The notes under the pieces: generated by a model | Database searches by the model: none | What the model saw: only the letters and a program-made list of their open reading frames with translations | Told to the model about the DNA's origin: nothing | Shown: piece after piece, positions 1,256 to 50,280 of the stretch | Layout of the letters: each line of letters begins with the position of its first letter | Position numbering within the stretch: the stretch's first letter is position 1 | NCBI GenBank assembly: GCA_050084985.1 | Contig: JBITNC010000001.1 | Location: forward strand, 159,898,001-159,962,000 | Reading direction: 5' to 3' | DNA from: Nageia nagi | Lineage: Eukaryota > Plantae > Pinophyta | Length of the DNA: 64,000 bases | Translations under genes and position numbers: made by a program

Positions 1256-2288
1256 GTAAATTAGACTGGTCTTCTGAGCCAGACGTCTAGCCCTTTGGGC
1301 CATTGTACTTGTATTTTGAGATCAATATAATTTAGATTTGTATCTCTCTTGGTCTCATACAATTTGTCATTAAAGTTTCTTCTTGTTTAAGGCTGGAATT
1401 GCCCTGTCTTATGTGTAGAATTTTTTTCTTAATTTCAGACATTACAATGGTATCAAAGCAAATATCTTGCCAGCCTTTGAAGATTGATGTAGTCTAATCG
1501 TTACTACCTAAGGAAGAACCAAACTCCAACATCCCAACTAAGGGCAAACATTGAGGAGATGGCCAACGTCCATGATTAGCAGGAGAGACTCGAAGACCAA
1601 AGGCATAATGTGAATGAAGTCATGCTTGATAATGGCGCCCTAAGATATTTGCTTGAGGGACAAGAAGGACATGAAGATAAACGAAGGACGCCACCTCTCA
1701 AAGATTAAGCGGAATAAAAATTTGATATATTGTGTGAATTGATAACTACACTGGTCAATAAGGTCAAGCAAAGTAATGGTCGTTCGACGACAAGAGAAGA
1801 TGAAGTTCATGGTATGGGGCATGGGTCTGAAGAAGAAAGCCATAGGACTCCACTACAAAGATCTAGCTCTGCAAGGGAACGAGATCCAGGAGGAGGGACA
1901 TTTCTACACAAATCAAGATCCGTCAAAGATCCAGGAAGAGATGGACGCAAAACACCCTTGCGAATGCAAGAAGGCAAGACACCCACGTTGAGCTTGGACA
2001 TGACCCGGATAACCACGTTGGGTAGTGTGACGTCTCATTTGGACCATTGACAAATTGTGTCATGGTCACTTTGTAATCTAGTGTTTGTTCATATTCATAT
2101 TGTACATGTGTAACTCAAGCAGAAGCTTATGGTCTGTGGACCCATTGTGAGCCCAAAAATGGGACATCTCCCCTTGAGTAGTATTCAGTGTTAGTTGTAT
2201 TGGGTTATCTTGGATTGTGGGAATCCCTAAATAGGTATGAGTCTTACATAGGCCAGAGTGCATGGAGGAGCATAGAAGTGTTGAGAGG

Positions 2289-2490
2289 GACCCACATATC
2301 CCATGTTGGCTTATGAGGCCACCTAGACCCCCACGTAAGCCTTGAGAGACCCATCAGACCCCACGTCAACCTTGAGGGCCTTTATGAGCCCCACGTTGAC
2401 ACACTAGGCCCATGGGACCCCCACGTTAGCATACTGGGCCAATATGACCCCATGTTGGCATGGTTGACTTCTTGACCCCAATGTTGGAAT
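2289..2490 (+). repeat. ~30-bp tandem array with CCCCACGT core in the E1/E2-family LTR (also ~6993-7192 and ~8918-9086)
   Basis: About 7 diverged units of gaccccacgtt...; the copy in the LTR starting at 8656 has one unit fewer. Confidence 0.85.
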
Positions 2491-3724
2491 AGACTTGGCT
2501 TGGGATGATATTGAGACATGTTGGATAGACATGGGAGGCTATATATTGAGGATGGAGCTCCATGATGAGGTTAGCTATTGATTATACTTCTATTACATTG
2601 AACCCGATCAAACTTGCAAGTCTTGGCGATGCCTAACGTTCTTCCTAGGTGGTATCTAGAGGGGTGACAAGGTTGGGAGCCCAACACTCTATGACTTAGG
2701 TGGGTCACCTAATCCATCTGATGGTATTCCGAGGGCGAGCTTCTACCTTCAATGGTTATCCAGGGTTCGAGGAGGCTCCTTCATAGGAGAGGAATCGAAG
2801 TCTGAGGGAGTTATTCCTATGGTGTTCGACTTGTTCAAGGGTTTGGAACCCTAGATCTGGATATTGAGATCCTCATTGTACTCCTTTGCATATCATAATA
2901 TAATCCATCTCATTGTGTCTCTCCATTGTGTTGTCCATTGTTGTGTAGGTGTATCTCTTATAGACTGATGTTGTAAGCTTCATTCCATTCATAGGTGTTC
3001 AGCCATTGTGTTTGTATTTGTGAGGCATTCGTTGGAGTGCTAAGCATTGGTGTGTGCCCTAGAGGGTTGACATTAGGGTGTAGGGTTTGCGTAGAAGCCT
3101 TAGGAGGTTCACGTCTGCATTGTGTGGTGTTAGGATGCCCTAGGGGCCCAACGTAGGTGTGCTAGCTTTATTTGTTGAGGGTTTGAATTGCATAGTTGGA
3201 GTCGTTTATACTAAAAGTGATTTTAGATCGACACAAGTGGTATCAAAGCCTGGATCTTGCCAACCTAAGGGCATGGAGGGTCGATCCACGGTTACCGTGA
3301 AGAAGTCAGAATATGGACCGAAGATATTTCAGCACTTGCTTCACAAATTTGAGGAGGAAAAGATCCCCATGGAGGATAGACGAAAGCTTATTTGGTATCT
3401 AGGTGAAAGGCATGCGAATAGGATGTGCAAGAAAAAGGGAAGGCCATGCCTACCAAGACCCGATCCAGCACATAAGATGCCACCAGGAATTGAGATCTTG
3501 CTCCAAATATATCGTGGGATGGTCGAGGGTTTCAAAATGATGTCACTTTTCATGTGTATCAAGACTTGCTCGGCTATGGAGTGAATGCTTGGGATGGTAA
3601 TTTCATTGGGGATGTTGAGGACAGCTCAACCTTAACGGCCAAACCTAAGGAGGGCGATGAGGATGAAGGAGTTCAGGATTTGAAGAAAAAGTAGGATTCG
3701 ATAGAGGGGATCCGGGAAGGCGCC

Positions 3725-6700
3725 TTGAGCCTGAAAAACAAGATTGAATGGAAGATATCCCTCCGATCCAGTGCCACACACAATTGCTTAGAGATGGTCC
3801 TGGAAGTGATCTCAGCAAGGAGTATGGATGCCACGATCCGAAAGAAGGATAATGAATGGGTTTGCATATTCACATTGTCCAAGGGAGGGCCAATGTTGGA
3901 TACTAAAGAGGTACCAAAGCAACCGCCAGAGATCCAAGCCATTCTGGATCAGCACCCAGACATTTTTTCGGAGATTCTAAGAGGCTTACCACCGTCCAGG
4001 GGTTTCGAGCACATGGTGGAGCTAGAGGAAGGTGCGAAGCTGGTCATGATCACACCATACAGACACTCCAAATCCTATAAAGATGAGATTAAGAAGGCCA
4101 TCAAGGAGTTACTAGATATGGGATTCATTAGACCAAGCACTAGCCCCTTTGCATCTTCGATGGTTTTGGTGAAGAAGGATGGAACCATGAGGATGTGTAT
4201 TGATTAGCAGTTGTTGAATAAGAAGAATATCAAGAACCAATACTTGATCCCACGGGTAGATGAGCTAATAGATGAGTTGCATGAAGCCAAGTACTTCTCC
4301 AAGGTTGATTTCAGGTCAAGTTATCATCAAATCTGGATGAAGAAGGAGGATGTACACAAGACAACATGTCATTGTCACATTGGCCATTTCGAGTTCATGG
4401 TGATGCCATTTGGACTCACCAACGTCCCAGCTACTTTCCAATCAGCAATGAATCAGGTGTTTTAGGAGCAATTAAGGAAGCATGTCTTAGTATTTTTTGA
4501 GGACATACTGATCTACAGCAACATGTGGGAGGAGCATCTCGGTCATCTGGATGCTGTATTGGGGATATTGCAGGAGCAACAGTTCTATGCCAAGTTGTCC
4601 AAATGCGAGTTTGGGATGATAGAGATCTTGTATCTAGGGCATGCGATTAGCCACAAAGGAGTGCAAGTGGGCGAACAAAAAATCTCTGCAATAAAGGAGT
4701 GGCTGAACCCCACAACCCTCACGCAGATGAGAGGATTCCTTGGGTTATGCAACTAATATCTGAGATTTATACAGGGGTTTTCTCACTTGGCAGCACCTCT
4801 CACGTAGCTCATTAATAAAGATGCCTTTGTTTGGAGTGATGAGGCACAGGAGGCCTTTAGGAAGCTTAAGGAGGTGATGTGCACATGTCCCTATTCGGCT
4901 ATACCTGACTTTTCATCCCCTTTCATAGTGGAGTATGATGCATCCAAGTTGGGTGTAAGGGTTGTGTTGATGCATAATGGATAGTTAGTGGCTTTTGAGA
5001 GCAGGAAATTGACCAATTTTGAGAAGAATTTGAGTGTGTATGACAAGGAGATGTTGGCTATCATGCATGCACTTGAGAAGTTCAAATAGTATATGGTATG
5101 TGGGCCATTTGTTATACGAAGTGATCATACCAATTTGAAGTATTTCCTTAGTCAGATTGATCTCCAGAAAAGCAACAAAGGTGGGTGAGCAAGTTGCAAT
5201 CGAACGATTTTGAGATCCAGTACATCAAGGGTAAGAACACAGCAACAAATGCTCTATCCCGACACCCATCATTTTGTTCACTCTTAGCCATCACAACAAA
5301 ATGGAAGGAGGTCATGGATGAGTATGCACAGGATGTATTCACTACAAGGATCCTTGATGGATCAATCAGGAACAAAAGGTATTTGATCAAGGAGGGGCTG
5401 ATCTACAAAGGAAGGAGGATCCTCTTGACACCCACATCTGAAGTAAAGAAGAAAGTGTTGCATGCACTTCACAACACACCTCTCGCAGCTCATCCTGGTG
5501 TTCGTAAGACCTACTAGGCCGTTAGGGAAAGATTCACATGGAAAGGACTCAAAAAGGATGTAGTGACCCACGTCCAGGATTGCACACGTTGCCAAGAGAA
5601 TAAGGATGAGTATGTGAAGCCGGGAGGATTGCTTTAACCTTTTCCTATCCCTCAACAGAAGTGGAAACACATCTCCATGGATTTCATCATGGTTTTGCCG
5701 AAAACCCAAGGGAAGGATAGCATCATGGTGGTGCTTGACAGGCTCACCAAGTTTGCCCATTTCTTCGCCATTTCCACCACACACATAGCCATACAGATTG
5801 CAGATTTATTCTTCTGAGAAGTTTTTAGACTGCATGGCATACCATTGAGAATAGTCAATAACATGGACATCAAGTTCATGAGCGTGTTTTGGCAGGAACT
5901 ATTCAAACTGAGTGGGACGGCTCTCACACCTAGCCCTTGTTATCACCCTCAGACGAATGGGTAGACGAAGATCATCAACAAATGGGTTGAAGGATACCTG
6001 CATCACTAGGTCATAGGCCAGCAGCAAACGGGGGTCAAGTGGCTCCACATTGGGGAGTATTGCTACAACACCACCCTCAATTCGTCCAATAAGATGTCTC
6101 CCTTCAGTGCACTATATGGCTATGATCCTCCTAACTTTACTTATTTGATTTTTTATGAGGGTAAAGCACCCATGGCTAACCAGTTCTTGCAAGAATATTA
6201 GGACATATTGAGGGTGCTGAGGGACAACCTGAAGATGGCTCATGATAGACAGAAGAAATTCTATGATCAGCATCAAACTGAGAGAAGTTTCAAGTGGGGG
6301 ACATGGTGTACTTGTGTCACAACCCTTTTGCCAATCGTCATTCAAGAAGCGAAAGGCAGAGAAATTACAGCCACGTTTCTTTGGGCCTTAAAAGATTCTG
6401 CTTAAGATTGGAGAGGTTGCCTATGAATTGGAGTTACCTCTGGGGAGCAAGATCCACAGCACTTTCCATGTATCCCTGTTGAAGAAGGAAATCGGACACT
6501 AGGATGTCTCTTCTTCGATCTTACCACCAATCGATGATGAGAAATGATTGGTCCTCATACCGGAGAAGGTGCTAGAAACTAGGGTAAGGAAACTCAGGTA
6601 CAGGCAGATCCAAGAGCACCTGATCAAATGGAAGAATCTTGAAGAAGACTCAAAGTGGGAGGGAGAGGACATTTTAGCACATCCATCACTTGGTTACTTA

Positions 6701-6754
6701 AGGGCAAACAATCGCGGGAGAGTAGGCTTTGTGACGTCCAATTTGGACAATTGA
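3725..6754 (+). pseudogene. E2 pol remnant: RT - RNase H - integrase - chromodomain, with many stops and frameshifts
   Basis: Motifs GFIRPSTSPFAS, KKDGTMRMCID, FMVMPFGLTN, VFFEDIL (DD-box variant), EYDAS, HPG...C..C, ISMDF, YHPQTNG, and chromodomain PEKVLETR...HLIKWKNL. Confidence 0.93.
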
Positions 6755-8655
6755 CAAATTGTGTCATGATCACTTTGTAATCTAGTGTTTGTTTATATTC
6801 ATGTTGTACATATGTAACTTAAGTAGGAGCTTATGGTCTATGGACCCATTGTGAGCCCAGAAATGGGACGTCTCCCCTTGAGTAGTATTGAGTGTTAGTT
6901 GTATTGGGTTATCCCAGATTGTGGGAATCCCTAGATAGGTATGAGTCTTGCATAGGCCAGAGTGCATGGAGGAGCATAAAAATGTTGAAAGGGCCCCACA
7001 TACCCCACATTGGCTTATGAGGCCACCTAGACCCCCACGCCAACCTTGAGAGGCCCATCAGACCCCACGTCAGCCTTAAAGGCCTTTACGACCCCCACGT
7101 TAACACACTAGGCCCATGGGACCCCCATGTTAGCATACTTGGCCAATATGACCCCCACGTTGGCATGGTTGACCTGTTGACCCCAAAGTTGGAATAGACT
7201 TGGCTTGGGATGATATCAACACATGTTGGATAGACATGAGAGGCTATATATTGAGGATGGAGCTCCATGATGAGGTTACTTATTGATTATACTTCTATTA
7301 CACTAAACCTGATCAAACTTGCAAGTCTTGGCGGTGCCTAGCATTCTTCCTAGGTGGTATCTAGAGGGGTGACAGGGTTGGGAGCCCCGCACTCTACGAC
7401 TTAAGTTGGTCACCTAGTCCATCCGATGGTATTCCGAGGGCAAGCTTCTACCTTCAATGGTTATCCAAGGTTTGAAGAGGCTCTTTCGTAGGAGAGGAAT
7501 CGAAGTCTGAGGGAGTTAGTCTTTCCAGTCTTTCCTATGGTGTTCGACTTGTTCAAGGGTTTGGAACCCTAGATCTGGATATTGAGATCCTCATTGTACT
7601 CCATTGCATATCATAATATAATCCATCTCATTGTGTCTCTCTTCATTGTGTTGTCCATTGTTGTGTATGTGTATCTCTTATATACTGGTGTTGTAAACTT
7701 CATTCCATTCGTAGGTGTTCAACCATTGTGTTTATATCTATGAGGCATTCGTTGGAGTGCCAAGTGTTGGTGTGTGCCCTAGAGGGCTGACATTAGGGTG
7801 TAGGGGTTGCATGGAAGCCTTAGGAGGCTCACGTCTGCATTGTGCGATGTTAGGATGCCCTAGGGGCCCAATGTACATGTGCTAACTTCATTTGTTGAGG
7901 GTTTGAGTTGCATAGTTGGAGTCGTTTATACTAAGTGATTTTAGATCATCATAGGTAGTCAGGTATTTTGGAGCCCCACGTTAGGGAGGAGGCCATCTGG
8001 AATGGCTACATTGGGTTTCCAAGGAGATTGGGACCCCATGTTGAGCATGGATGAAACTAGGACAACCACGATGGGTAGCCAAGGAGGTTGGAGCTCCACG
8101 TTGGGTAGGAGGTCATCCGGGACAGCCACGTTGGATGATTAGGCAATGTGGGAATCCATGAAGAATGTAGTGTCTTTAGAGTCAGCTCCGTTGGGGATCC
8201 AAGGAGTAGGGAATCCCACATTGAGCCTCTGGGAGGCAGGAGCGCCTACACAAAGTACTCGGGAATTCTGGAACCCTACTTTGCAGATTGGGGAATCAAT
8301 TGTTGATGAGGGTATCAAGTCCGGAAAGGGGCCTATGCCCAATACATTTTTTGCTGACAATCATCTTTTGCAGGACATTGCAGGTACAACTGAGTGTGGG
8401 AGTACACTCAAGTCCATGACTGAAGAGATTCATCCATGAACATAAACTTAGGAGAGGTGGTCCTGGACGCTTCATGAGTTCACAAATCACTGAGTTATCC
8501 AACGCTAAAGACCCACTACAGCCAAAGGTATTTTAGATAAGGATGGTATTCCAGAGAGGTGTGGTACGGCTAAAGACACCAAAGGATTCTTCGAAGACAG
8601 TGCATAGCTATCTCCTACCATTGCTTAAGGGCAAGCAATTCGAGAAGGGAGGCTT

Positions 8656-9824
8656 TGTGAGTTCCCATTTGGGCCATTGAGAAATTATGTCATGGTCACT
8701 TTGTAATTTAGTGTTTGTTCATATTCATGTTGCACATGTGTAACTCAAGCAAAAGCTTATGCTCTGTGGACCCCACTGTGAGCCCAATAATGGGACATCT
8801 CCCCTTGAGTAATGTTGTGTTAGTTTGTAATGGGTTATCCCGGATTGTGGGAATCCCTATATAGGCATGAGTCTTGCGTAAGCTAGAATGCATGGAAGAG
8901 CATATCAACGTTCGGAGGGCCCCACATACCCCACTCTAGTTGATGAGGCCACCTAGACCCCCACGTCAACCTTGAGGGTCTTTATGACCCCCACGTTGAC
9001 ACACTGGGCCCATGGGACCCCCACGTTAGCATAATGGGCCAATATGACCCCCACGTTGGCATGGTTGACCTGTTGACCCCAACGTTGCTATAGACTTGGC
9101 TTGGGATGATATCGAGGCATGATGGATAGACATGGGAGGCTATATATTGGGGATGGAGCACCATGATGAGGTTAGTTATTGATTATACTTCTATTACACT
9201 GAACCCGATCGAGCTTGCAAGTCTTGGTGGTGCCGAGCATTCTTCCTAAGCGGAGTCTAGAGGGTGAAAGGGTTGGAAGCCCGACACTCTATGACTTAGG
9301 TGGGTCACCTAGAACATCCGATGGTATTCGGAGGGTGAGCTTCTACCTTCGGTGGTTATCAAGGGTTCGAGGAGGCTCCTTCGCAAGAGAGGATTCAAAG
9401 TCCAAGGGAGTTGGTCTTTCCTATGGTGTTCGGCTTGTACAAGGGTTTGGAACCCTAGAACTAGATATTGAGATCCTCATTGTATACCATTACATATCAG
9501 AATATAATCCATCTCATTGTATCTCTCTCCATTGTGTTGTTCATTGATGTGTATGTGTTGGCTCTTGTATACTGGTGGTGTAAGCTCCATTGTGTTGTGT
9601 TCATATCTGTGAGGCATTTGTTGAGGTGCCAAGTGTTACTGTGTGCCCTAAAGGGGTGACGTCAGGGTGTAGGGGTTGCGTGGAGGCCTTGGGAGGTTCA
9701 CGTTTGCATTGTGGGGTGTTAGGGTGCCCTAGGGACCCAACATAGGTGTGCTAGCTTCATTTGTTGAGGGTTTGAGTTGCATAGTTGGAATCATTTGTAT
9801 TGAGAATGATTTTAAATCATCACA
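8656..9824 (+). repeat. 3' LTR of E1, same family as the E2 LTRs
   Basis: Colinear with 2026-3235; TGTGA...TCACA termini; PPT immediately upstream. Confidence 0.92.
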
Positions 9825-10084
9825 TCTAGGCCATCCATCCCTGCTAGATCTGGGATGTTAGGTCCCTTGTGAAAATAAGCACCTCAATTGGAGAGAGTTC
9901 ATACCAACATCAATTGCTTGCCAAGGACAAGATGCATGGATGCAACCACACGAATAGAGTTGACAAGGAAAAAATTGTATTATACATGCAAGAATCCATA
10001 GGAGCCCAATCATGATAAGATAAGATGCATGAATGCAACCACACCTGAAGAGGTTGGTAGTCGAACTATGCCAACATAATAAAG

Positions 10085-14979: not shown

Positions 14980-16955
14980 TAATTATTATTTTATACCAAT
15001 CTTATTACTTATGAGGATTTGCTCCCACAAGTATTGAAACAAATCTTGTAATGCCATGTGGTGCCTTTTATTGGACCATACATAAATTTGTCTCATAATG
15101 AGTGTTAGGGATAGGGCAACACTTAGGGTTGCCACAAAAACTATTTATAGCTCTTAAGGACTCATTTGTTAAGGGATTAGACAATTTGCAATTTGAAGAG
15201 CTTTACAGTACTTCCTAGCAAACAAGTTGTTCAATTTGTGAATGTGGTATTTCGACTAAGTAATCAAATGGTGAATGCTCTCATTTTGGAATTATGAATG
15301 TATGTGAATATCATTAATAACATCTAAAAGCTTAAGTGGTTGAATGTTACTATCTTGTGTTACCTTGAATGTCTAGTACATTATGTAAATCTTGTTGAAG
15401 GTGGACAAAAAAGTGGTTGAATATCTCTTGAAGTATTTCAAGTAATGCTTGTTGTTGTAACAATTCATAGTTTGCATTATAGACTTGTGCACTTTGAGAT
15501 GGCTCCTTTATGTCGCTTAGCATAGGAACTTCACTCCTTAGTTGAAAGTCTACCCACGGCTTACCTTTTCACCATTACTACCTTAGCTTCATGCTCCTTT
15601 TACTAGACCATTGATGTTGTTGGCGAACAAATTGGATCAGGAGTACGTGGAACTTATAACAGGCCTAAGTGAGTTGATTCTCAAAACCTACACTAGTCGA
15701 TGAGACCATTAACATTTGTGCAAAACTCACATAAGGACACTTCAAGTCCCTGATTAACAAATTTCATTTGAGTTGGTAGTAGCTTCTAACATCCTATCCA
15801 GTGTCCTAAGTCATGTTCTTGCACATCCATCCAAGAGACCTTTAAGGTAACCAATCTGGTATTGGTTTCTTTGCGAGCCTTGCTAAGTCATTTTCCTATT
15901 TGCAAGGTAGGAAAGAAAAACTACCCAACACATATTAACTACTTTCAATAACTTTAGATATATGATAATGAACATACCCAAAACAAAGGTAATGGTGTTT
16001 AATGCTGGAATGGATAATGCATTATTGTAAAGGTTGTATTAAATCCTCTATGTAAATTCACTAATACTTAAGGGTATTATTTGATACCTTAAGTATTGTA
16101 GTGAATATAATAATATAACTTGTCCTACACTCCAAGTCATTAGCATGCCCCTTGAGTCAAAGATGTGCATGTCATGCTTAGGTCATCCAAGAGGGGATTT
16201 TGGCCTATAAATAGAAGACTACCCTTTTGTAATGATACACCAATTGTGGAGTAAAGATATGTTATAGGATAGAAATGTAAGAGTTGAGATTAGGAGAATT
16301 GTTAAAGAGTTGTATTTGTGAGAAAAGTAAAGATCTAGTTAGTAGATGTACTCCTAGTTGGAGGAACCACTTTACATCTTGTGTTGTGAGATTGCTTTAT
16401 GTATTTGTTGGATGTAATTGTGAGCTTTCATATGATCTTGGTAGTTTAGGAATTATATTGTAAGTGTTAATTCCTTCAAATTGGTATCAGAGCCACTTGG
16501 AGGCTCATCTTCATATCTTTGGTGTGGAAGCTAGATATTGGTGATCCTCACTTCTCATCCTACACTTCGTTGTTGAGGTAAAAAACAAGAGAAGGTATAA
16601 ATTAAATTCCCCTCTCTTGGTTATTTTTGGCTTATTACATTTTATTACTATATATTATTTATTACGTGTTATCCTTTCTTTTGAGCATAATATGGCTAAC
16701 AAAATTGCAAAATTTTAGTTAATGCTAATCTCTTATGATTGCTTGCAATTTTTTTAATTGCTACAAGTTTTTAAGAGAAGGGGTCATTACACAAAATTTG
16801 TGTAATCTTACAAAAGTAATATTCCAAAATATACTAAACATTAAGAAATAGGATGTAATTTTGTGCCATTTGTTTTGATACTAACCTTTTTTAAAAAACT
16901 TGTAATTATTTTTTATACATTTTGGTTAAATATGTATAAATATTAAAGTTTTAAA

Positions 16956-16964
16956 ATATATATA

Positions 16965-17054
<90 letters not shown>
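16956..17054. repeat. (TA)n microsatellite in the copia leader
   Basis: Directly visible. Confidence 0.98.
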
Positions 17055-17058
<4 letters not shown>

Positions 17059-30718: not shown

Positions 30719-31030
30719 TTATGTTTTAATCTCAGCCATCAGATCTGATCATTAATCTATATATATATATATATATAGGTTGTGATATAATTGATCTTTA
30801 AGGTTCTCTTAATGAGGATTGATTTTTTAATGTCAACCATCAAAAGACATCAATGGTTGTGACTTATATATATATAGATTAATGATCAGATCTGATGTCT
30901 TTTGATGGTTGACATTAAAAGATCAATCCTTATTAAGAGAACCTTAAAGATCAATTATATCACAACCTTAGATTAATGATCAGATCTGATGGCTGAGATT
31001 AAAACATAACTTAGAGACACTTAAATATAT
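30501..31030. repeat. Inverted triplication with (TA)n inside the 3' LTR of element A
   Basis: Arms 30501-30638 and 30893-31030 are reverse complements. A second inverted copy lies at ~30716-30866, and (TA)n at 30651-30714. Confidence 0.92.
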
Positions 31031-31272
31031 TTCAAAAACGTCTTCCAAACTAAATGCATTAAATAATGTATTTTTCTAACCCAATGCTCTACCCAAATAC
31101 TTAAATAACTCCCGTAACCCATATACTAACATTTAAACTTGTCAAACCACATTTACTATCCCATATAACTCTCATTTTAACCACAAATTACGACAAAATA
31201 CCCTCAATGATGCCCAAACACATACAAAACACAAAAAGACAATATTTACAATGCTGGACAAATTTTGGAGAA

Positions 31273-33436: not shown

Positions 33437-35142
33437 CCTTAGAGTAATCCAGAAAAACATGACCCTCTTCAAGAAAAGAGGAAATCAGAAAAATTTTGGC
33501 TAAAGAGGTCAAACTTAGAGTGTTTGGGAGTGGGGAGTGTTTAGAGCTAGGTATAGAGGCTGTGAAGGCAGTCTAGGTATTGCAAAGGGAAGCAACAATT
33601 AAGAACAAATTACCCAAGCCAAGAAGAAGACTGATCCTCCAAGATCAGAAGTCTAGTGAAGATGAGGACCCAGAAATTGAAAAAGGAGTGATGACACATC
33701 AAATTGGGTCTAACATGAAAAGGAAGTTAAATTCACTGATAATGCAAGTGGCGTAGCAGGAATGACAAGGAGTAAAGTAGCAATACAATCAAAGGCTCCT
33801 TCCCCTAGTTCAAATGCAATGTCTTGGAGCCCTCTTCAAAAAGAGTAGCTTCAAAAGAACAGGGTGGTTCAAAGATTTCGGAATCTCTTTCTGATATAGT
33901 CACAATAGCCAAAAGAGTCTCAAAGGGATTGGGGACTCTTCTGAGAAGAGTCAAGAAGCAAATTATCAAGTAAAACAAAATAAGAAGAGAAAAAAAGTTG
34001 TCTTTAGTAAAATGTTTAATAGAACTGAAACCTCTCTAAGTTTGGAAAAGGAGAATGCAACAAAGTTAGGTCAAGGGCATAAAGAAAGAGTTAAACTCTT
34101 GGACTCTACAGCAAGCACTTTGAATATAAGAAAGACTAGGAGTTCAATCAAAAACAAGAATGCCATAACCGTTCCCTAGTAGAAAGAGGGTTGTATAGAC
34201 ACCAAGCTCATTTGGCAGGATAAGCGAGGATGTCCGATGAGGATGTGTCAAGGGGAAAGGGAATTTGGTGAAGGAACGTGAGCTCAACCCTTTGTACAAA
34301 AAAAGTGACATCCAAGTGATTAATTTGAAGGAGCATACCCCCCTCGGAAGAATTCAGAATAAGAGAGATTGGTAATCTCCTAAACAAAACAAAAATTCTC
34401 ATTAAGGAGGTAGATCAGGAGCAACATCAAACAAAGACAATTTTAGAGATTGTTGTAACTTGTTTGACGGAAACCGTGGAGGCAACTGAGAAGACTAAAA
34501 TAGGCATTCCCAAAATAGAGAAGACTATGGAAAGACAATCGTGGAAAATATTAAGCAACAAAATTAACAATGAAATGCTTGTTGAAGCAATTAGCAGAAA
34601 AACGGGAACACAATATTAAATATGATGAACTTGGACCGAACCCGAGATTCAAAGAAATTATGCTTAAGAAAACCTATAACAGGTTTTACAAAAATAATTA
34701 TGACGAGCAAAGCTTCTTGCCTAAAAACTAGAGCAGCAACGATGCAGAGCAAAATGCAGCAGATAACATGGACCATTGTTTTGAAGAAGATAAGTTATAA
34801 GATAGAATGTTGTGTTTAACCAGATGGGCTATATGTGTTTTGTGGCTTTGTTTCCTAGATACTTTGTGGCAATATGCTATAGTAGCAAGTAGTAGTTAAA
34901 CTTTTCAGCATTCATATTGTAATCTCTAACCTCTATAGAGGTTCTTGTTATTATACTTTGTATGCTTAACAGAGTCTTTTTGTTACTGATTTAGTAGTTT
35001 AATCGATCTAATATGCAAACTTAGGGACACATATAGGTGACAGACAAGTTTATCTAGACATTTTGTAAAAGGTTCAGAAAGATCCCTATAAACTTCCCCC
35101 TTTATGATTAATACAAAATTAACCCATTAATCAAAAAAAAAA
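33437..35142 (+). mobile_element. Poly(A)-tailed retroposed insertion (LINE 3' part or LINE-mobilised RNA) in the 5' LTR of element A
   Basis: Absent from the 3' LTR at GTTGAC|ATTAAAAGATC. Ends with ...TTAATACAAAA...CATTAATC-A10 and contains a decayed K/E-rich ORF. Confidence 0.7.
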
Positions 35143-35494
35143 GATCAATCCTCATTAAGAGAACCTTAAAGATAAATTATATTACAGCCTTAGATTAATG
35201 ATCAAATCTGATTACTGAGATCAAAACATAACTTAGAGACACTTAAACATATTTCAAAAACATCTTCCAAACTAAACGCATTAAATAATGTCTTTCTAAC
35301 CCAATACTCTACCCAAATACTTAAATAACTCCCCTAACCCATATACTAATATTTAAACTTGTCAAATCACATTTACTCATATGACTCTCATTTTAACCAC
35401 AAAATATGACAAATTAACCTCAATGATGTCCAAACACACAAAACTTAAAAAGGCAATATTTACAATACTGAACAAATTATGAGACATTACAACT

Positions 35495-37890
35495 TGAAAC
35501 AAACCAAATACAAATGTACACAAAACAATAATAATTCCACATGGCAAAATCTAATTTCTTTTATATTTTGTCTCTTCAATAAAGAAATCTTGCAACTATA
35601 GCAGATTCTAGGTAACAAAGACAATGCATTACAATTTTAGGTAAGCAAGACAATTATAGATCACTAAACACACCTTGAAGAGCTGATCAAACAGTTGTAA
35701 CACCTTCAAAACTCAAAATAGTTGTACTATTATCTCCAAGATAGACGACTGTTGGACAAATTTCTCAAAGTTGTCTTCAGTCAATTATCTCAACAAATAA
35801 CACTCTCAAGCCTCTATGCTATTGAACAAAGGTTGATATGCCCAAAATTGTGCCAGTATTGGATTGTCTTCACTAAAGCTCTTCCAAAATTGCATAGAAA
35901 TACCCTTCAAACCTGGATGTTGCACCGTGAAGGGAAAATATCAAGTGATCTAGGCACAAAATGTCCTCACAAGCATGACCATGGCACCCTTGATGAAATT
36001 CTGATCTGAAACAATATCTCCCAATGGAACGTACCTCCTCAAATAGTAAAATATGCCAGAATATTGTCTAAACACTTAATTCTCTAACATGCAAGCATGC
36101 ACACACAAATCTGAAATAGATATATCTTCAGATGGGTAGGAAGCCCTAGATCTGCACCTTTTACCCTTGCAAAAAATTTCCTTTCTACCTCTAGTTGGGA
36201 TGTTTGGCTTCCTGATACAATTTAAGCCATCAAACCTGCAAATGGCCCTTCCTAGGGCTGATGTTTGGCTCCCTATGACAGTTTTGGCCCTTATAACCTA
36301 CAAAACAGTCATCTCAAGGCTCACAACTTACTCCAATAGCCTCCAAAGGCAGGATCTCTGCTCAAAAACTTCTAACTTGCCCTCCAATAGGCAGATCTGC
36401 ACTTTAACTTCAATGATGCTCCCCAAATCAAGCCCAAATCACCAACCCTGATGTGGATTGGTCATATCCAATTGGGTAGATAGCTCTAGGATTTAATCCT
36501 TCAAGACTCCATTTAATTGATCTCCAATGGAAATCCCAGAAAACTCCAAAAAATGCAAGAGTCCAAAAGAGCAAAGCTCTTCCAAACTCCAAATTCACAA
36601 TCCCCACCAATGAAACCCTAAAGTCCCTTTTATTTTCAAAACCTAAAGTAAGATTAAGTCTCAACCTTAGATTTAACCATGGAGGGTTGAGATTAGATCT
36701 CAATCTCATAAGATATAATCTCATGTTGAGATCACTTAAGTTATATTGGACCTCACACAACAAAGAAATAATAATAATAATGATTTGAAAAATGTTACTT
36801 TATCAAATGCCTATAATATAGCTTTATTTTTAACACCAAAATCCTCCTAATGCCATAATTAACACTACTAACCTATGTACCAACATTCAAACTCGTCAAA
36901 ACACACTTATAAACCCCTATAACTCCTATTTTAACCATAAAATATGCTATAAAACTCTCAATGATACCCAAAAACACTTAAAACACACCAAAAAAAAAAT
37001 ATTTACAATACAAGAATTATTTTGGAACATTACAAATCTGCCCCTCCATAATTGTTTGACCCCAAGCAATGCAAAACACAATCCCCAATACTATCCGACT
37101 GAACCAACTATGATCCCAGGATTCCAAATTAATCTTGGAAGAGACTATCATGTTGATGTTGTAACACTTTGATGATAACTGAAACTCTATCAATAAGCGT
37201 TCCATCTATTGCCCACAGGAGAAGATCTGATGCTTTTGCCAAATCCATCAAATCTTATGAAACCTTGTGATATCTAAAAAATGTAACAAGAAGACTAACA
37301 ATCTATTGATTTATTCTCCACATTTGTTGACCTTGTTTAGCTGGTGTACTCTCAACATTCCCTTGTATTTCAAGAACTATAATCAACCTCTGCCAGAGCA
37401 ACAGTACAACAACCATACATAGTTTTTTTTTCTTTTCAAGCACCGCTTTGACAAGGTTTCCCACCTTGTAATTAATCCCTTTATCAACATTCAACCCAAT
37501 AGAAGCATCTAAACATCTATACATTTCAGAACAATTGTTTCCTACTTCCTTAATGAATTCAAGATTATTCTCATTTCCACGGTTCAAAGAGTGTTGTTTT
37601 TCTTTTGCTTCCAAGTGTTCAACTTTTTCTCTATCTAGCTTGAAGATTTTGCTGCCATGATGGAGGATGATTCGTGATTACTGCATTATTTTTCGGTATT
37701 ACCTTGTTTTTCTTGTCTTCCTTGGTTATCTTCTATCTAAAATAACCACTGAAAGTACTTTACATAAGTTTAATGAATTTGCTTTTGAGTCCACCTAGGT
37801 GGGACCCATCTAAGCTAGCCTACAACTATCATAACTTAGCCCAAATTTTCCCTTTTGCATAAATCAAGTAAATAAAGTCATTTTAGATTA
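35495..37890 (-). mobile_element. Element B: 3' LTR (37034-35495) plus internal 3' part of a related non-autonomous element
   Basis: PPT/LTR junction GGAGGGGCAGATT|TGTAATG is nearly identical to that of element A. The tail translates RLIWNPGI...LLGVKQLWRGRFV. No 5' LTR found. Confidence 0.75.
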
Positions 37891-38173: not shown

Positions 38174-41100
38174 TGTGAATTTGGCAACTTTAACTTTTAA
38201 AAAAAGACAAGAGATGGGTCCTGTTGTGCCTACACAACACCCCCCAAACTTTTTGCATTTTGATGACCCTCAAAATAAAAGCACAATGCATGGAAGTAAA
38301 TATTTGTCTAAGGGAACGTATGCATTTTGGCCTAGCTTCAGGAGACATGTTAAACCTGCACTTTCATTATCAGATCAAGTTAGAAACCTACATTTTTCCT
38401 CAGTCGCATGTTTTCAAGTGGGTGCTTTTGCACCCAACCCAAACGGTGCGACCAATCTCATGCTACATTTTCATACTCACCACTTGTATTTTCCGTCTCA
38501 AAACTACATTTTCAAGGTCCCTCATGCTGCAAAGATTCATTTCTCCCTCATTGCATTTCATGTTTGAAGTCATTCTAGTCGGAATTCAAGGCAAAAAAAA
38601 TGTGCTTTCAACCTATCGCATGCTTTTGAATGAGTACTTTTGCACCCACCCAAAACAGTGCGACCAAGACTGGAGCCTCTCATACTTAGCATTTTTCTGG
38701 AAAAGCATGTTTTCAAGTGAGTGCTTTTGCACCCATCCAAATCCATGCGACCAAGGAGGAAGAAACTTATACTTAGTTGTTTCGGAACCTACAAAGTCTG
38801 TCGCATATTTTCAAACGAGTGCTTTTGCACCCATCCAAATCCATGCAGGAGAAAAGGGGACTTAGCCATTTTTGAGGCAATCAAGGCTTATCGCATGCTT
38901 CAAAGTGAGTGCTTTTGCACCCAACTCAAACCATGTGAACAAATTCATGAGGTGAAAATTGGCTAAGTGTTGGGTCCAGATTGTTGCCAAGTGGAAACAC
39001 ATGCATTTGACCTCCTCTTGCACCTATCATATGATGACACCTATCTAGAGCATTGCGTGGAGCCAATAGAGAAAAAGCACTCCTCCAAAACAATGCGAAT
39101 GGGCATGCTTTTCATTGAGTGCAAAAGCACTCACTCAAAATGGTGCGACTGGGTAAAAATCTGCATTTTCATAGGAAAGTCATGCATTTTCAGGTTTGAA
39201 ATTATGCATTTCTACATCAACTGGTTGCTACCATGCATTCTGAGATCATTCTGGCTCATTCTGGAAAAACTAGCTAAGTGTTTAACTTGAGCGCACCATT
39301 TTTGTGTAGTGAAAAAGCACTCACTCAAATGGTGCGACCAACCTTGAGGGTGCTAAAATTGGCTAAGTCATTGAGAAATTGAGCATATACTATGGGAAAG
39401 ACAAGTGCCTCACATGCATTGGATCATTTTTTGAACTAATCGGCATGTGACACTTGTCCATTGGAGACTGCATAGTATAAAAGGCAACATGCTAGTTCAT
39501 TTTGTATTTTGGATCACTTCATTCTCATGGCATCTAGCTTTGCTCAAGTGAAAAAGCACTCCTCCAAAAAAGTGTGACTGGGCATGCTTTCCATTGAGTG
39601 AAAAAGCACTCCTCCAAAACAGTGCAACTAGGCATGCTTTTCATTGAGTGGAAAAGCACTCCTTCAAAACGGTGCGAAAGCACTCCTCTAATACAATGCG
39701 ACTAGGCATGCTTTTCATTAAGTGAAAAAGCACTCCTTCAAAACGGTGCAAAAGCACTCCTCCAAAACAATGCAACTGGGCATGCTTTTCAAGCAGTGCA
39801 AAAGCACTCCTCCAAAATGGTGCGAAAGCACATACCAAAAATAGTGCGACCAAGCTCAAAGGGGTTAATTTCGAAAGAAAATTTGGCTAAGTCATTTGTT
39901 ACATCAAATTGGTAGGCGCATGCAATTTGGGACATGAAAAAGCACTCCTCCAAAATGGTGCGAAAGCACTCGCTCAAAACGGTGTGAAAGCACTCACTCA
40001 AAACGATGCGACCAAATCTGGAGGCATAATTTTTCTGAGGCATGGAAAAGCACTACTCTGTTTTGGTGCGACTAGGCATGGTTTTCATAGAGTACCAAGA
40101 GCATGTACTAAAAACGATGCGCCCGGACATAGAAGACATACATTGAACCCATTCTATAGCAAATTGAAGCTTGCCACATGTCCCAAGCATTGACATTTGT
40201 TACAAGCAATGCCACCTTTCCAAGAAGCACTACCTATCAAATGCATGCCATACATATGACACCTACCTTAGAACAAAAGATTTATGAATATTATGCAAGA
40301 CTCCAACCAAAGGCACCTTTTCAAGAGGCTTGGTGACTGAATATCTTTGGAATCCGCAACTATAGAAGACATAGTGCAAAACTCATCTCTGAAGGGAAAA
40401 GTTCGTGAGAAGGAAGTTAAGTTGCCAAAGGGGAAGTGATACAAGATGTTCAAAATTTTCAGACTAATTATAGTTACATGCTAAGACACTTGATGGATAT
40501 GCCAGAATATCGTATGCAGAGGAAGAAAGGGATTTACTCAGATATAAATGACAAGCACTTCATTCTCTCCAAGGTGCATCACTCGGTTCTCATGATGTAG
40601 GTCACATAATTTTGAGCTCGTGAACTTGCAAGACCCATTTTGGCGCAACTTCCCCAAAAGCACATTGGGACATTCAAGATTGGGCCCATCATCTGACATC
40701 ACCAAAGAGGAGCGGAACTCTGCCAGTATCGGATCAGATCTATCCTAGGTTTGATACACCCGCAAATATTGTCTACGGTATCTTTTCTGTTGTTAAATGC
40801 ATATTTGATGATGGTTGTTATGTCAGACTCTATTTCATTTGATTTGAATGGTGTAGGGATGAGGTTTTGCTTCTGCCAGTTCAGATGTTAAACTTCTTTA
40901 TTACATATCTGATTTACTTTCAAGTAGCTTAGAAGTAGATTAAATGCATGGTAGTTGTGGTAGTTATATTTTGTCAGGCTTTTAAGTGCCACTTGCATCG
41001 ATTCATGCAGACAATCTAATTTTGCATCGATATGTGTGTTGCATGTGTGCACACCATATCAAATTTGATGCCTTTAGGGCAACACCGCATTTATTGTGGC

Positions 41101-44391: not shown

Positions 44392-47300
44392 TGTAATGAC
44401 CCTATTTTTAAGAATATCTCGCATTTGGGATTTTCCACAAATTTTTTCTCCTACAAGTCAGATATGGTTGTTGCACCTTCAGAATTGGATAGAGCATCTC
44501 ATGGCATTTGTTTTAAGTGGTCACATGACCCCTTTTGGACAAGAAATGAAGGAGTTATGGCTACTTGAAGTTCGTCAGTCGGACCATTCTTCCATATCAC
44601 GCCTACACACAAAAATCCACTTAACTTAGTGGATTTTTACTTAAAAGTGCAATGTTGAATTATAATAAACTTTTATGTTATTCTAATATTATTTTAAGTA
44701 CTTTTATTTGTAATAAGGCCAATCAATGGCTTAGATTAGCTTAGAGGGGTCAATGCAAGATTAGGGTTGGAGTCTATATAAGGAGATGCAACACTCCATT
44801 TTGGGTATGTTATGTGATATGAGAATTGAATATTGAAACCCTAGAGTTTCCATGAGTTGAGATTGCAGGTCTTGCTCATTCCCATAGTGCATTGGAGGTG
44901 CATGGTTGGGGACTTGGCAATATCATTGAAGGTGTTATTGCCCTAAAATATCAAAAATACAAAAAGAGACATTTGTGAATGGTTCGTGGCATTTCTTTTG
45001 TGGAGGGATTCACTCAATTTGGAAAGTTTGTATCTGCATTTTTAGTTCCGTGAGGATTCCATTTGTCCATTCCAGCTTTGTATTGGTTTGGAAATATTTA
45101 ATATATGATACTGGCTGATTTCTCCTCATACTAGTGTTATTTTATGAGCAATTTCTAAGTTGTTTTATAGCTGCAATTTATTTCTGCATTTTTATGTTGA
45201 GGGTTTGCTAGACATAAAGAAATAAAAATAAAAGGAACATCACAAGTGGTATTAGAGCTTGGATCTTGCCAACCTGTGGTTAGATCTAACATTTTTCAAA
45301 GATTTGGAGTTAATGTTTCTACAAAAAATTCAGATCTTCAGTTTCTAGCATCTGGGTGTTGAATATTTTTGGGGGATCTAATAGATCAAGAAGGTTTGCA
45401 TTTTAAAAGCAATTTTTCAAGGTTAAAAGGCATTTTTTAAAGAAAATCTGCATTCCTAGACTAAGTCGTCTAAGGTTGAGAGATAAAAATTGCATGATTG
45501 AAAGCTATTTTCAAACATAGGAAGTCTTGATCTATTATTCTAGCTAGTCAGAAAAATTTTGCTCAAGGATTCTAGGCAGAATTGGAGTTTTGAGTAAAAA
45601 AAATTTATGATGAATTTTCAGATCTAGCATTTTTCAGTATTTTTCAATTGTGGGTATCTCAGTTTCAGAGTTTTTCAGAATTAGGGTTGCCAATTTTATA
45701 GTGAAAATCATTTTGGGTATTGCAGATTCTTGGTAATTTGTTTGGTTGCAGAAAGAAACCCTAATTTCGTGGGTATCAAAAAACCCTATTTTGAGGGGCC
45801 ATTTGAGGCCAATTTTGGAGTTCTAGCATCAAATCCAGCATACTAAGCTGAACATCTAACCCTAAGGGGTATTTTTGAACACTTTGTATGCAGTTTTAAG
45901 CTTTTAGAAGGGTTTTTTAGAGGAAAAACAAGAAGGTGACGTTTTTGAAGATTCAGTTAGTTGGAGGTATTTGTCGGGTAGATTTGAGCACCCATTAAGC
46001 TCTACTTCTCATTGCCACCTTTAGAAAAAATGTTGAAATTTCTTTTATATGAGATCTAGCATTTCCTATGATTTTTTACCTATTTTTCAGGAATTGTACA
46101 AATAGGGGTTTGAAGATTGATGTTTGCTAAGAGTGGATCATGGAACTATTCAGGAGAAAAGAGAATGAGTAGAAGTTGGATGCAATGATTGTTTTGATGC
46201 AAAAGATGATGACATTAGAGGAAGCAAATAGACAAGCAATAGTGACATTAAAAAGGGTAAACATGCAACAAAATGGAACCAACGAACCTAAGAGAGAGAA
46301 AAGACAAGTGCAACAAAAAATGACCATTCCCACCTTTAATGGTCAAGATAGTTTATCAACTTTGGGAAAAACAGAGAAAGCTGAAATTTTCCATAATAAA
46401 GAAGAGATTGAAGAGAATTGTGCAAAAAAGTGTGAAGTTGTTCCTACCATTGAAAAAGAGGAAAGGGGCCAAACAGAAAATTTTGAAGAAAATGCAAGTA
46501 GTGAAGACATTTCAGCAATGGAGCATGGTTCGTCTAGCATGATTGATTTCACTCAAGAGATTGGTGATAGAGATGCTACTCTCCCACTTGAGGTATGTTT
46601 GAAAGAGAACCAAAATACTTCCTTTTGTACATTTATACCTACACATGTTGAAAATGAATTCAATGAAAAACATGATGCTCATGATTTGGGAAAAGAGTTA
46701 GAAAATGTTTCAAATTTGTTTTTTGCATACTCTATGGGAAAGCTACAAAAGGGTGTTGAAGAATTTTCAGTTTGTGAAAGTTTGGAGAGAAATGGGCTAG
46801 AAATCCAAATTAAGCCCTTAGATAATTGTGATCATAATGGCCTTAGTTTTCCTTGTGTGAAGAGTTTTGTGAGGGAAAGATCAATCACATTTGAGAATTA
46901 TGATCAATCTTTAAATGCATGGGATCCAGGAATTCTTTTCATATATGGTAAGAGTTCTTTTGGTGGAAAGAATCACAAACATATTCAGCCATGGTACATG
47001 TCTCATACTCATCTCATGGGAGGAGGACAATCCTTTGACATTTCACAAATTCTGTTATGTAAAGGTAAATTTACTACAGCCATAGTTCCTTCAAACAAAA
47101 TGTTTATTTTTCTCATGTGGATGCATCAGCATGGTAGGAGGTGTAGAACACTTCTCAAGTGGGACATTGCAGAAGGAGATACTGTTTCATGGACATATGT
47201 GGTATCTTTTCACTTATTTTTGTGGCTTTCGTGGATTTACAAATTGCTGATTCAATTTTGGTATTTGGAGTGGACTTTTGAAGTCTTATATGTGGGTAGA

Positions 47301-50280
47301 ATGGTGCAAAATTCTCACTTTTTTGCAATCAATAAATTTGATTTAAAAATCAGAAAAATTGTAGAAGAAAATGAAAACAATTGGCATATTTTTCATCATA
47401 CATGTTCACATGATACTTTCAGTCTTTTAAACAGTTGGAACAGCCAACAAAGAAGCACCATGATTGGAAAAATTGAAAGAATTACAGTTGCAAATTTGAT
47501 GAATTTTTGGAGCAGCAAAAGGACTGATTCCACACTTGATTGGTTGACTTGTGTACATTTCAAGTATGGTTTAAAATGCAAATGGGATAAATGGGTTGTA
47601 CTTTTTGTTGAACCTTGGCATGCATTGGTTCATAATTTCATCTTGATGATTTTTGATTTCATTTTGAGAGTGTGTAATAGTTCCAGATGGAAAGTTAATC
47701 ATTTCATTTTCAGATTGTTGGAGTTGAAAGACATTTTGAGCAATTCATGGGTCTTAGAGAAGCACTTGGGTAGTCTTGATTGCATTTTTTCTACTTTTAT
47801 ACCGTTCATAGCCCTTGTGAAGACTCTTGAGTACACTTTGAAACCCTTTTACATCTTCAATTCAGGTTTGATTTGGAGCACACTACATTGAAGGATTTTA
47901 AGTTGGTATTTGATCATTGACATACATAAGATGGCATACAGTTTTCAGATTGCAGAACTTACACATGAAACTAATTTGATTTGTGAGTTTATTTGGGCAT
48001 ACACAAAGGAAGGTTTTATATATACTTGTCAAAATATTAGTACATCTTCCTTCATGTTTTGCACTCCACTTTGCAAGATGTTTTGGACTGTTCTGATGAC
48101 AATTAGTGTGGCTACAATTTATACAAATATGATTGTACATTGCATGATTTTTTATGCAATAAGAGTTGAGACTGATATGCATGAATTGCAAAATTGCATA
48201 TGTGTTCTTTTGCTCAACTTGGGTAAGGTAAAAACAAAAAATTTCATGTGTAAAGGTGCAATGATCAATTATAGGGAGAAAAGGAAGATAAATTCATACT
48301 TGGGCAGACATGAAAACATTCCACAAAGGTAAAAGTTGAATTCTGATTTTTATGACAGCATTGTACTATTTCATTTGGGGCATAATGAGGATGAACTTGT
48401 TGATAGAAAACATAATGAGTTTCAGAAATTGGTGTCTTGTGGTGATGCCAACATATTTGGGAAGGTAACTTATTTTCATTTTGCCATGAATTTAAGTTAT
48501 ATACTTTTTGCATTGGTTGGTTTTGAAAGTGTATTTTCAGTTATGGGAGCACATAGTCATGATTGTTGTGGTTTTGAACATAAAAGTGTGAGTAAGTCTT
48601 CATCCATGATGTGCACATTCAGTTCAAAGTTACTACAACAGTATGAAGAAGTATTGGAAAAGGTGTGGCAACATGTTTTTGACCAAGGAAAGCATTTTTG
48701 ATGAAGTCACTAATATTTGGCATGGTTTGAAAGTCATATGGGAGGTAATAAATTATGTAATTGGTTGTGATATTACTACTGTACATTTCATTTTCAGTCA
48801 CTATTTTCTTGAGATATTTGCTAGTTATCTTTCATTCATGCATGGCACAATGATGGGAAATAATGAAAGCAAAAGGTTAGATAAGTGTAATGCATTTATG
48901 GCTGTTGGAAAGAGAAAACCAAACCTCTTACACTTTTATTCCAGCCTATTTTCCAAGAGCTCAATCATCATTATTGATGATTTATTGATGCTTCTACATA
49001 ATGCAACTATGAGGGATGGAGAAAATCACACAGTTTGCCTACATTTTGGGAGTACAAAAACTATGTTTTTACTGTTGTTATGTATTCATGATGGACTTGG
49101 TGATGAAGAAGCAATATGGACTTTTGCCACATTTAGAAGTATGACTTGCTTTCATGAACACCATTGCTTTGATTTGGATTTGAAAGTTACTATTTCAGTT
49201 TTGGCTAGTTTGAGAGATGCAATTTCAGCCTTTGGAAGCTTGGGTTATATTTGTTTTGGGCATAAACATAATATGAATAATAAGTTTCAGATTTTGATAT
49301 GCACACTCAGTTCAGTTTTGAAACAGCAGTATGAAAGGACATGTAAGCACGTATGTGGGTTGTTTTTGGTAAAGAAAATTGTTCTTGATGAAGTCTTCAA
49401 TATCCTCCATTGCTTGATACATGAGTTATTGGACTTCATATGTGATTTTGAAGATGGTAACATGACTGCTATAATTCCATTATCTAGTTCTTATTTCATT
49501 GATACTTTTATTACTACTGCTGATTTTATCATTTTTATGCATAGTACAACTATTGGAAACAATGAAGGAATGATTTTAGATAATTTTGGGAGGTTTCAAC
49601 AGTCTTCATTCATTGTTGTATTGAAGAAATCAGACCTGTTTCATACTCAGTTTTGGCTAGCCTGCGTTAAATCAGACTTAACTTCACTCAATTTTGAGGC
49701 ATATGGAGGCTTGAGAGAGATTTGGGAAAGTTTTGGTAAAGTTCTCTTTGGTAGAATTGTTTGGGATCCTGGTATCAGAGATGATTTAAATTTGTTTCAG
49801 TTGAGCAAGGTAGAGTTGGTGTTGGGATTGCTTGAGGACAAGCAATTTGAGAAGGGCGGACTTGTAATGACCCTATTTTTAAGAATATCTTGCATTTGAG
49901 ATTTTCCACAAATCTTTTCTCCTACAAGTCAGATATGGTCGTTGCACCTTCAGAATTGGATAGAGCATCTCGTGGCATTTGTTTTAAGTGGTCACATGAC
50001 CCCTTTTGGACAAGAAATGAAGGAGTTATGGCTACTTGAAGTTCGTCAGTCGGACCAGTCTTCCATATCGCGCCTACACACAAAAATCCACTTAACTTAG
50101 TGGATTTTTACTTAAAAGTGCAATGTTGAATTATAATAAACTTTTATGTTATTCTAATATTATTTTAAGTATTTTTATTTGTAATAAGGCCAATCAATGG
50201 CTTAGATTAGCTTAGAGGGGTCAATGCAAGATTAGGGTTGGAGTCTATATAAGCAGATGCAACACTCCATTGAAGGTGTT
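44392..50280 (+). mobile_element. Element C: relatively young non-autonomous chromovirus-derived LTR element with a truncated 3' LTR
   Basis: 5' LTR at 44392-45244, PBS at 45247-45258, PPT GAGAAGGGCGGA, 3' LTR at 49863-~50280. The LTRs differ at about ten positions over ~410 bp (counted by eye). Confidence 0.92.
46140..49899 (+). pseudogene. Element C cargo ORF, ~1250 codons with 3 in-frame stops and 1 frameshift; no RT/IN/PR
   Basis: ATG 46140 and ORFs 46176, 47910 and 48336 share one frame; ORF 48643 continues after a shift. Gag-like KMTIPTFNGQD near the start, WDPGI twice, and a LLEDKQFEKGGLV tail reading into the LTR. Confidence 0.8.

Follow-up and report, generated by a model that had tools for sequence, protein, structure and literature searches.

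Stop-poor but unconstrained reading frames in enzyme-less chromovirus derivatives at a Nageia nagi locus

Why would retrotransposons that encode none of the enzymes for their own copying keep a long open reading frame (ORF)? The question is raised by a 64,000-nucleotide stretch of Nageia nagi DNA (contig JBITNC010000001.1, positions 159,898,001 to 159,962,000 of the forward strand; hereafter the window, with positions counted from its first letter), which by self-comparison and sequence reading is AT-rich repeat DNA with a nest of gypsy elements. Four of these, E1, A, B and C, were described in an earlier note as sharing one layout, namely an extended primer-binding site (PBS), one long ORF, and a peptide tail read across the polypurine tract (PPT) into the 3' long terminal repeat (LTR). 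Our answer, held with moderate confidence, is that they are derivatives, without enzymes, of a chromodomain gypsy element with a single ORF, and that their frame stays clear of stops while the amino acids change neutrally, likely since a helper copies only translated RNA. The family statistics come from 28 metagenome loci (L numbers below) found in one scan with the tail motif, plus public-run contigs aligned to C and A.

Open frames and drifting amino acids

Openness was scored in break units, one for a stop and two for a frameshift, with 30 dinucleotide shuffles per element. The long frame of C (46173-49899, plus strand; about 1240 codons, ending inside the 3' LTR) held 4 break units against 57.5 in its shuffles (z -12.8), and A held 7 against 25.1 (z -7.1). 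In B the count was 6 against 10.6 (z -3.1). A fixed-frame count in E1 gave 13 stops where 21 were expected (p 0.04), and its best frames connect in register across the nested insertion N. The claim that the frames are mostly open is therefore supported beyond chance for C and A and weakly for B; for E1 significance was not reached, as considered below.

The frame of C is broken at 47889, 48330 and near 48667, by two stops and one frameshift. These breaks are private to this copy, the frameshift being absent from all four runs and from L015, the first stop from P0001 and the second from L015, and the age of the C LTRs predicts about two stops from decay alone, the number seen. Because the breaks match the predicted decay and are missing from other copies, the frame of C was very likely without breaks at insertion. 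A pair of offsetting indels, 52 nt from each other, alters about 17 residues of C, and the frame stays open. Upstream, the extended PBS and a 0.9-kb leader without an open frame (45247-46172, plus strand) had 16 breaks against 13.7 in shuffles, and 12 ATGs where 14.9 were expected. One contig of a possibly-RNA run skips 124 nt of this leader (45964-46089) with GT..AG ends, a possible intron.

Copies were then compared within two families, 7 pairs of the C family and 23 of a second family from the metagenome loci, by a permutation test that preserves base and neighbour context. Five of 28 second-family pairs were left out for having fewer than 60 codons, L008 and L024 were dropped as chance matches, and L013 and L022 as duplicates of L002 and L007. 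Codons with synonymous changes only were at expectation in all 30 non-autonomous comparisons (z -1.4 to 1.6); in autonomous pol the synonymous z was 14 to 25 in seven diverged pairs, one near-identical pair being uninformative. Differences at the three codon positions numbered 80/90/76 between C and L015, 135/120/118 between C and L025, and 64/62/72, 127/129/134 and 33/36/35 in three disjoint second-family pairs, a flat spread in all five (p>0.49), as against 142/83/381 in autonomous pol. The Gag N-terminal block drifts alike (15/12/16 by position; 8 synonymous and 25 non-synonymous codons), and no column is invariant. The NG86 dN/dS of 0.70 does not count as evidence of constraint, since values of 0.50-0.76 were also obtained in shifted frames.

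Stops behaved differently from substitutions. In the sense direction their ratio of observed to expected was 0.56 in the C family and 0.54 in the second family, compared with 0.86 and 1.10 in antisense; LTR pairs carried 35 stops against 36.3 expected. The sense stops that remain are what decayed copies should carry. Copies agreed in frame over 0.81 of codons in sense and 0.41-0.45 in antisense. Indels divisible by three made up 14 of 27 in four disjoint ORF pairs versus 10 of 66 in LTR pairs (p 5e-4), and among indels of at least 3 nt the figures were 14 of 17 versus 10 of 21 (p 0.04). In the non-autonomous frames, then, amino acids drift without constraint while stops and frameshifts are under-represented. 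With stops depleted, substitutions flat and indels favouring threes in two families, the idea of selection for a translatable frame and not for a protein was borne out.

Inherited ends, remodelled middles and a Dicer-like piece

The tail motif lies at 8621 (E1, plus strand), 31312 (A, minus), 37069 (B, minus) and 49828 (C, plus), four matches against 0.16 expected, a number reached in none of 100 shuffles. Extended PBSs occur at 1448 (E1), 32812 (A; 32785-32812, minus strand) and 45247 (C). The common layout proposed for the four elements is confirmed in part, with four tails and three extended PBSs; E1 lacks a matching 5' LTR, and A uses another frame for its tail. The chassis is not peculiar to these elements. 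The same extended PBS is present in N, in a further element D (PBS at 56677) and in the intact autonomous L017, a complete 1680-codon gag-pol with both tail and extended PBS, and in 6 of the 28 metagenome loci a long pol frame has the LLEDKQF tail at its end, across the PPT. L017 and its relatives have a chromodomain upstream of the PPT and an ORF running into the LTR, and entries from Pinus taeda and Taxus chinensis are among the relatives of the partner pol. In L003 and L028, plain deletion derivatives with gag and protease, the LLEDKQF tail is also present, and among the non-autonomous elements only these two have a recognisable Gag capsid. The chassis of E1, A, B and C is nothing more than both ends of an autonomous chromovirus with a single ORF. 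Numerous contigs agree with the tail and depart from it upstream (loose ends at 49827 and 31312), as expected if the end is constant and the parts before it vary.

The absence of a reverse transcriptase (RT) or integrase core was confirmed: tblastn with autonomous gag-pol and an integrase-chromodomain hidden Markov model (HMM) found no RT, RNase H (RH) or integrase (INT) core in E1, A, B or C, matches being confined to N and to the chromodomain piece of A. All four are real non-autonomous Ty3/gypsy elements. Two similar LTRs with PBS and PPT are present in C and A, but not in E1, where the 5' LTR has no counterpart, or in the truncated B. A target-site duplication (TSD) was seen at N only, and the 3' LTR of C is truncated. 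The C family was amplified after the loss of pol, with end-to-end coverage in all four low-coverage runs and further copies in L015 and L025, and C was matched in many air-metagenome runs, which, taken with the conifer relatives of the partner pol, suggests wind pollination of a conifer host. The middle of A had no contig coverage in the four runs, which says nothing firm about its amplification.

In A the tail had been read as LLGDKQF. The long frame instead crosses the PPT in +1 and is closed by the LTR's first TAA, at the LTR edge; a 40-nt shortening of A relative to six autonomous loci shifts the tail to this frame. The tail region is read in the +1 frame by A, L023 and L010, over 187, 306 and 154 open codons. 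Because the frame used by A is a different one and ends at the LTR edge, the peptide of the tail does not matter. L023 (68-1695, plus strand) is itself non-autonomous, with overlapping frames of 321 and 317 codons, the second of which reads the tail in +1; these frames had no PDB match and a weak coiled-coil Pfam match.

A Gag N-terminal remnant opens the frame of C (46173-46349, plus strand; hhalign E 0.029) and ends in IPTFNG. Its counterpart in L025 scored 21 bits with a gag HMM (shuffles at most 6.7), C itself 1.7 bits. No Gag Pfam entry matched the non-autonomous frames, the gag HMM detecting the N-terminal remnant only, and hhalign gave no significant Gag homology for the N-terminal parts of A and E1 (E 0.62 and 0.37). 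A (W/R)(D/N)PG box had been reported in E1, B and C. It occurs as WDPG in C (first box 46920-46931, plus strand, 198 codons after IPTFNG) and as WNPG in B; in E1, R/K-DPG is two copies of one short duplication, and its homology to WDPG is unsupported. The pattern W-[NDVE..]-P-[SG..]-H-x-C stands at the zinc knuckle of 35 gag homologues, and the distance from IP.F.G to the first WDPG box is 198 codons in C, 190 in L025 and 230 in L010, compared with 204-214 to the knuckle W in 19 homologues. Motif and spacing make it probable that WDPG descends from the zinc knuckle of Gag; the intervening stretch no longer aligns to Gag.

A role for WDPG as a specially conserved peptide was rejected, as the box was kept no better than its flanks in nine second-family copies; it reads WDPS in 4 of 8 second-family copies at one site. 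A literature search for WDPG returned unrelated papers only. Two viral-contig scans and ARAGORN on 26 loci found no tRNA with which WDPG or the extended PBS could be compared as a possible second tRNA-iMet pairing site. The small RNA tae-N11 is presumably the 5' end of initiator tRNA-Met. In L012, 15 nt at about 2077-2091 (plus strand) are identical to this wheat small RNA (PMC5411081), possibly as a tRNA-derived piece or by chance.

The middle of C is partly an in-frame self-duplication of about 400 nt (48480-48884 and 49168-49583, plus strand, 60% identity). The frame of C had no Pfam or PDB match and only 7 matches among 1.84 billion representatives, all from its own family, and its last 429 codons had no homologue at E 0.001 among proteins of near length. 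L025 shares both ends of C, and the middles of the two are unrelated (0.37 kb in L025, 2.1 kb in C), each in one frame. No gag-pol similarity was found in the middles of C and the second family. The 10-aa repeats of E1 weakly resemble the 30-bp repeats of its own LTR (score 42.5; maximum of 200 shuffles 37.5). The internal regions are accordingly simple deletion derivatives of gag-pol, a possibility raised at the outset, as far as their ends go, and not in the middles of C and the second family.

The domain of A that had been called unknown matches Dicer-like 4 (DCL4). Residues 63-113 of the second frame of A (31534-31686, minus strand) match PDB 9kby_A with E 3.6e-5 and correspond to residues 1216-1266 of Arabidopsis-type DCL4, which we take to be the end of RNase IIIa. 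The same stretch matches DCL3 (7vg2) in the same register at E 0.067; the DCL4 match was one in 10 PDB searches, three of them on this stretch. The 199-codon second frame (31273-31872, minus strand) comprises the DCL4-like piece, a chromodomain piece in frame with it (31330-31410, minus strand; the first half of the pol chromodomain) and the PPT in the +1 frame, and it follows a first frame of 265 codons (31805-32599, minus strand) whose acidic part is common to other families. The DCL4-like piece is likely a captured, degenerate host fragment. No other host fragment was found in C, B or E1 by Pfam on 14 + 110 frames/segments and by PDB sequence searches, and a single-sequence fold of the second frame was uninformative (pLDDT 37.8). 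Two contigs of the possibly-RNA run X1 lie just downstream of the match (31428-31541); they could be host Dicer-like transcripts or other copies of A.

The cargo thus appears interchangeable in part. The DCL4-like piece and the unrelated middles of C and L025 agree with exchange, while C has duplicated itself and the E1 repeats are LTR-like. Modules do change in frame, but host cargo appears once, in A, and self-duplications or drifted sequence of unplaced origin make up most other middles.

Explanations and known systems

The survival or copying of the element RNA likely requires its translation. We suggest that an internal deletion would first join an N-terminal piece of Gag to the last codons of pol, and that the middle would then be remodelled by in-frame duplication, deletion and recombination, with occasional capture of host mRNA by template switching, as may have happened in A. 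Ribosomes would most likely have to read the RNA almost as far as the 3' LTR if it is to last until its packaging and copying by a helper. The single frame of the parent reaches the LTR, which leaves a short 3' untranslated region (UTR); an early stop in a derivative would lengthen this UTR to kilobases, and such variants would likely be lost before packaging to nonsense-mediated decay (NMD) or to the silencing of poorly translated RNA. The encoded protein would be a by-product. Long 3' UTRs are described as able to trigger NMD, with mixed genome-wide support (PMC6173133), poorly translated transposon RNAs as being routed to small interfering RNA (siRNA) bodies (bioRxiv 10.1101/2020.04.08.032953), and ORF retention in defective-interfering (DI) viral RNAs as a trend with exceptions (PMC5435362).

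Several observations weigh against this explanation. E1 was not significantly open (7 against 7.9 and 6 against 8.0 break units). The ATG-containing 0.9-kb leader of C is awkward for simple scanning and possibly an NMD trigger itself. An out-of-frame deletion of 194 nt (49347 to 49542) was present at appreciable depth in three of four runs and would close the frame of C about 320 nt before the LTR; as this variant has spread, reading right into the LTR is not obligatory. That so late a deletion is tolerated agrees better with a threshold in length than with a requirement for the tail peptide. More residues were identical than in the permutation for 6 of the 23 second-family pairs (z 2.3-3.4) and for C with L025 (z 2.4-2.7), which may reflect weak constraint or clustered differences. 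As to the data, the indel test omits the fragmented alignments C-L025 (18 of 48 gaps divisible by three) and L015-L025 (17 of 40), pairs of the same family and LTR pairs are not independent, the "RNA?" labels of runs are guesses, one such run shares its sample with a DNA run, and all data are contigs.

Coupling of translation and packaging in cis is known from Ty1 and L1. Here too, translation in cis might serve packaging and not the survival of the RNA. The nascent Gag remnant or the ribosome would deliver the RNA to the Gag of a helper, and the remainder of the frame would be a passenger that stays open for the sake of stability. We think this unlikely. The N-terminal piece up to IP.F.G is the sole recognisable part of Gag in C, L025 and L010, as such a role would have it, but this block drifts like the rest, and packaging by itself gives no account of 3 kb of open frame downstream. 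Still less probable is a real, fast-evolving protein that aids the element, for example a membrane or anti-silencing factor. The persistence of a very long frame in copies 70-90% identical, the slight excess of identical residues in some pairs and the Dicer-like piece of A would suit it; a synonymous excess was, however, absent in 30 of 30 comparisons, no column is invariant, C has own-family homologues only and no Pfam or PDB match, and the elements put up with local swaps of frame and with a tail read in one frame or the other.

Equally improbable overall is a neutral origin in which the frames are recent deletion products of gag-pol or an effect of base composition and nothing preserves them. 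In its favour, gag-pol accounts for the ends and probably for WDPG, simple deletion accounts for L003 and L028, the openness of E1 is not significant, and one out-of-frame variant has spread. Against this, gag-pol similarity is missing from the middles of C and the second family, copies differing by 10-40% keep a common frame, and shuffles, shifted frames, antisense and LTR controls show no stop deficit. A neutral origin is largely refuted for C, A and the second family and stands for E1 and perhaps B. A requirement for translation remains our preferred explanation for the others.

Several known systems resemble these elements in part. The Reina-clade Bingo families of sugar beet have a tRNA-Met PBS and a chromodomain upstream of the PPT, and in Bingo1-4 and 7 the gag-pol ORF extends into the 3' LTR (PMC3605345). 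The autonomous partners L017 and N share this layout, a clade assignment by layout alone, whereas E1, A, B and C are without RT, RNase H and integrase. TR-GAG elements are likewise non-autonomous, with LTR, PBS, one ORF, PPT and LTR and no pol enzymes (PMC4350172, PMC8704663), but their ORF is a recognisable Gag and they are shorter than 4 kb, whereas in the elements studied here no capsid core remains, C measures 5.9 kb or more and drift is neutral. The present elements are not TR-GAGs because they have no capsid core and are too long. Large retrotransposon derivatives (LARDs) have a long internal region without coding capacity, and the present elements are not LARDs because their long frame is under selection against stops. 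Modular elements of sugar beet, along a continuum of LARDs and miniature terminal-repeat retrotransposons (TRIMs), also show reshuffled modules, chimeras, gag and chromodomain remnants and template switching; the text available describes no selection that would keep a non-Gag frame open, and "reading frame" is absent from its main text (PMC13570524).

In maize Bs1 and in LTR retrocopies of animals, host mRNA replaces internal ORFs, often in frame, which fits A, but older copies are described as mostly showing loss of function or as showing protein constraint, whereas the frames here are open and unconstrained (PMC5131818). From its sequence, A would be the only element with a Bs1-like likeness. 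Coronavirus DI RNAs also show a trend towards ORF retention. In Flock House virus, deletion derivatives propagated by a helper tend to retain an ORF whatever its product, with exceptions (PMC5435362); the difference is that these are RNA viruses over passages, and not integrated LTR elements over long evolutionary times. By title and start of abstract, with subscription journals mostly uncovered, no paper was found on open but unconstrained frames in plant LTR elements, or on this pattern in connection with NMD, retained ORFs, conifers or the capture of Dicer sequences.

Taken singly, non-autonomy, modularity, the capture of genes and a frame reaching into the LTR were already known. The present comparison separates selection for an open frame from selection for a protein in natural, high-copy plant elements, and makes it testable whether NMD or translation-linked silencing filters the retrotransposon RNAs that are copied. 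It also cautions that long ORFs in gymnosperm repeats need not be genes, and the Dicer-like fragment of A is a lead on elements that capture parts of the silencing machinery. A wider picture can be offered only tentatively: conifers might hold a large, old class of translation-licensed defective chromoviruses, in which RNA surveillance by itself would keep kilobases of junk frame open and any in-frame piece swappable, and a fragment of Dicer-like mRNA acquired by at least one lineage could let silencing RNAs directed at the element hit host silencing as well. Such a class would be a reservoir of long, translated, unconstrained ORFs and might explain many gymnosperm "hypothetical proteins".

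Arrangement of the elements in the window

E1 consists of the extended PBS and 5' internal part (1448-2025, plus strand; frame not significantly open), a 3' internal part with the 30-bp (10-aa) repeats, tail and PPT (7959-8655, plus strand), and a 3' LTR (8656-9826, plus strand). The DNA upstream of its PBS has no match to this LTR (best local score 29). Nested in E1 is N (2026-7953, plus strand), a decayed autonomous-type gypsy element with RT-RH-INT-chromodomain, a Kimura two-parameter (K2P) LTR distance of 0.086 and a 5-bp TSD at 2021-2025 and 7954-7958. Its LTRs are 88% identical to that of E1, and the 30-bp repeats of E1 continue on either flank. The 5' part of N (3238-3800, plus strand) did not match a gag-protease HMM or the gag and protease of L017, and N may be gag-less, with pol only.

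A runs from 35492 to 29942 (minus strand), and both of its LTRs are interrupted. The 3' LTR (29942-31277) holds a palindromic insert at about 30501-31030 that resembles a miniature inverted-repeat transposable element (MITE), and the 5' LTR (32813-35492) an insert at about 33379-35138. The LTRs are 88-92% alike (K2P 0.085-0.126), and no TSD of A was found. The MITE-like palindrome with TA runs inside the 3' LTR was recorded at 30501-31030 and 35139-35252. B is a 5'-truncated internal part with WNPG box and tail (37034-37700, minus strand), and its LTR continues towards 35493. Inverted arrays of 24/50/74-bp subterminal-type repeats at 38400-40100 probably represent a DNA transposon responsible for truncating B.

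C spans at least 44392-50271 (plus strand). Its 5' LTR (44392-45244) has a TATA-like box at 44775; the second WDPG box, the LLEDKQF tail and the PPT lie at 49762-49862, followed by the truncated 3' LTR (49863-50271), which is 97.8% identical to the 5' LTR. By this divergence (K2P 0.0225) the element is young. The fifth element, D (55124-58100, plus strand), has 62-bp tandem repeats in its leader and an LTR related to that of L003; it is truncated, with no tail seen. Two copia elements lie at 16003-25016 and 62500-64000 (plus strand). The LTRs of the first are 93.5% alike, and 46/107-bp tandem repeats precede its 3' LTR.

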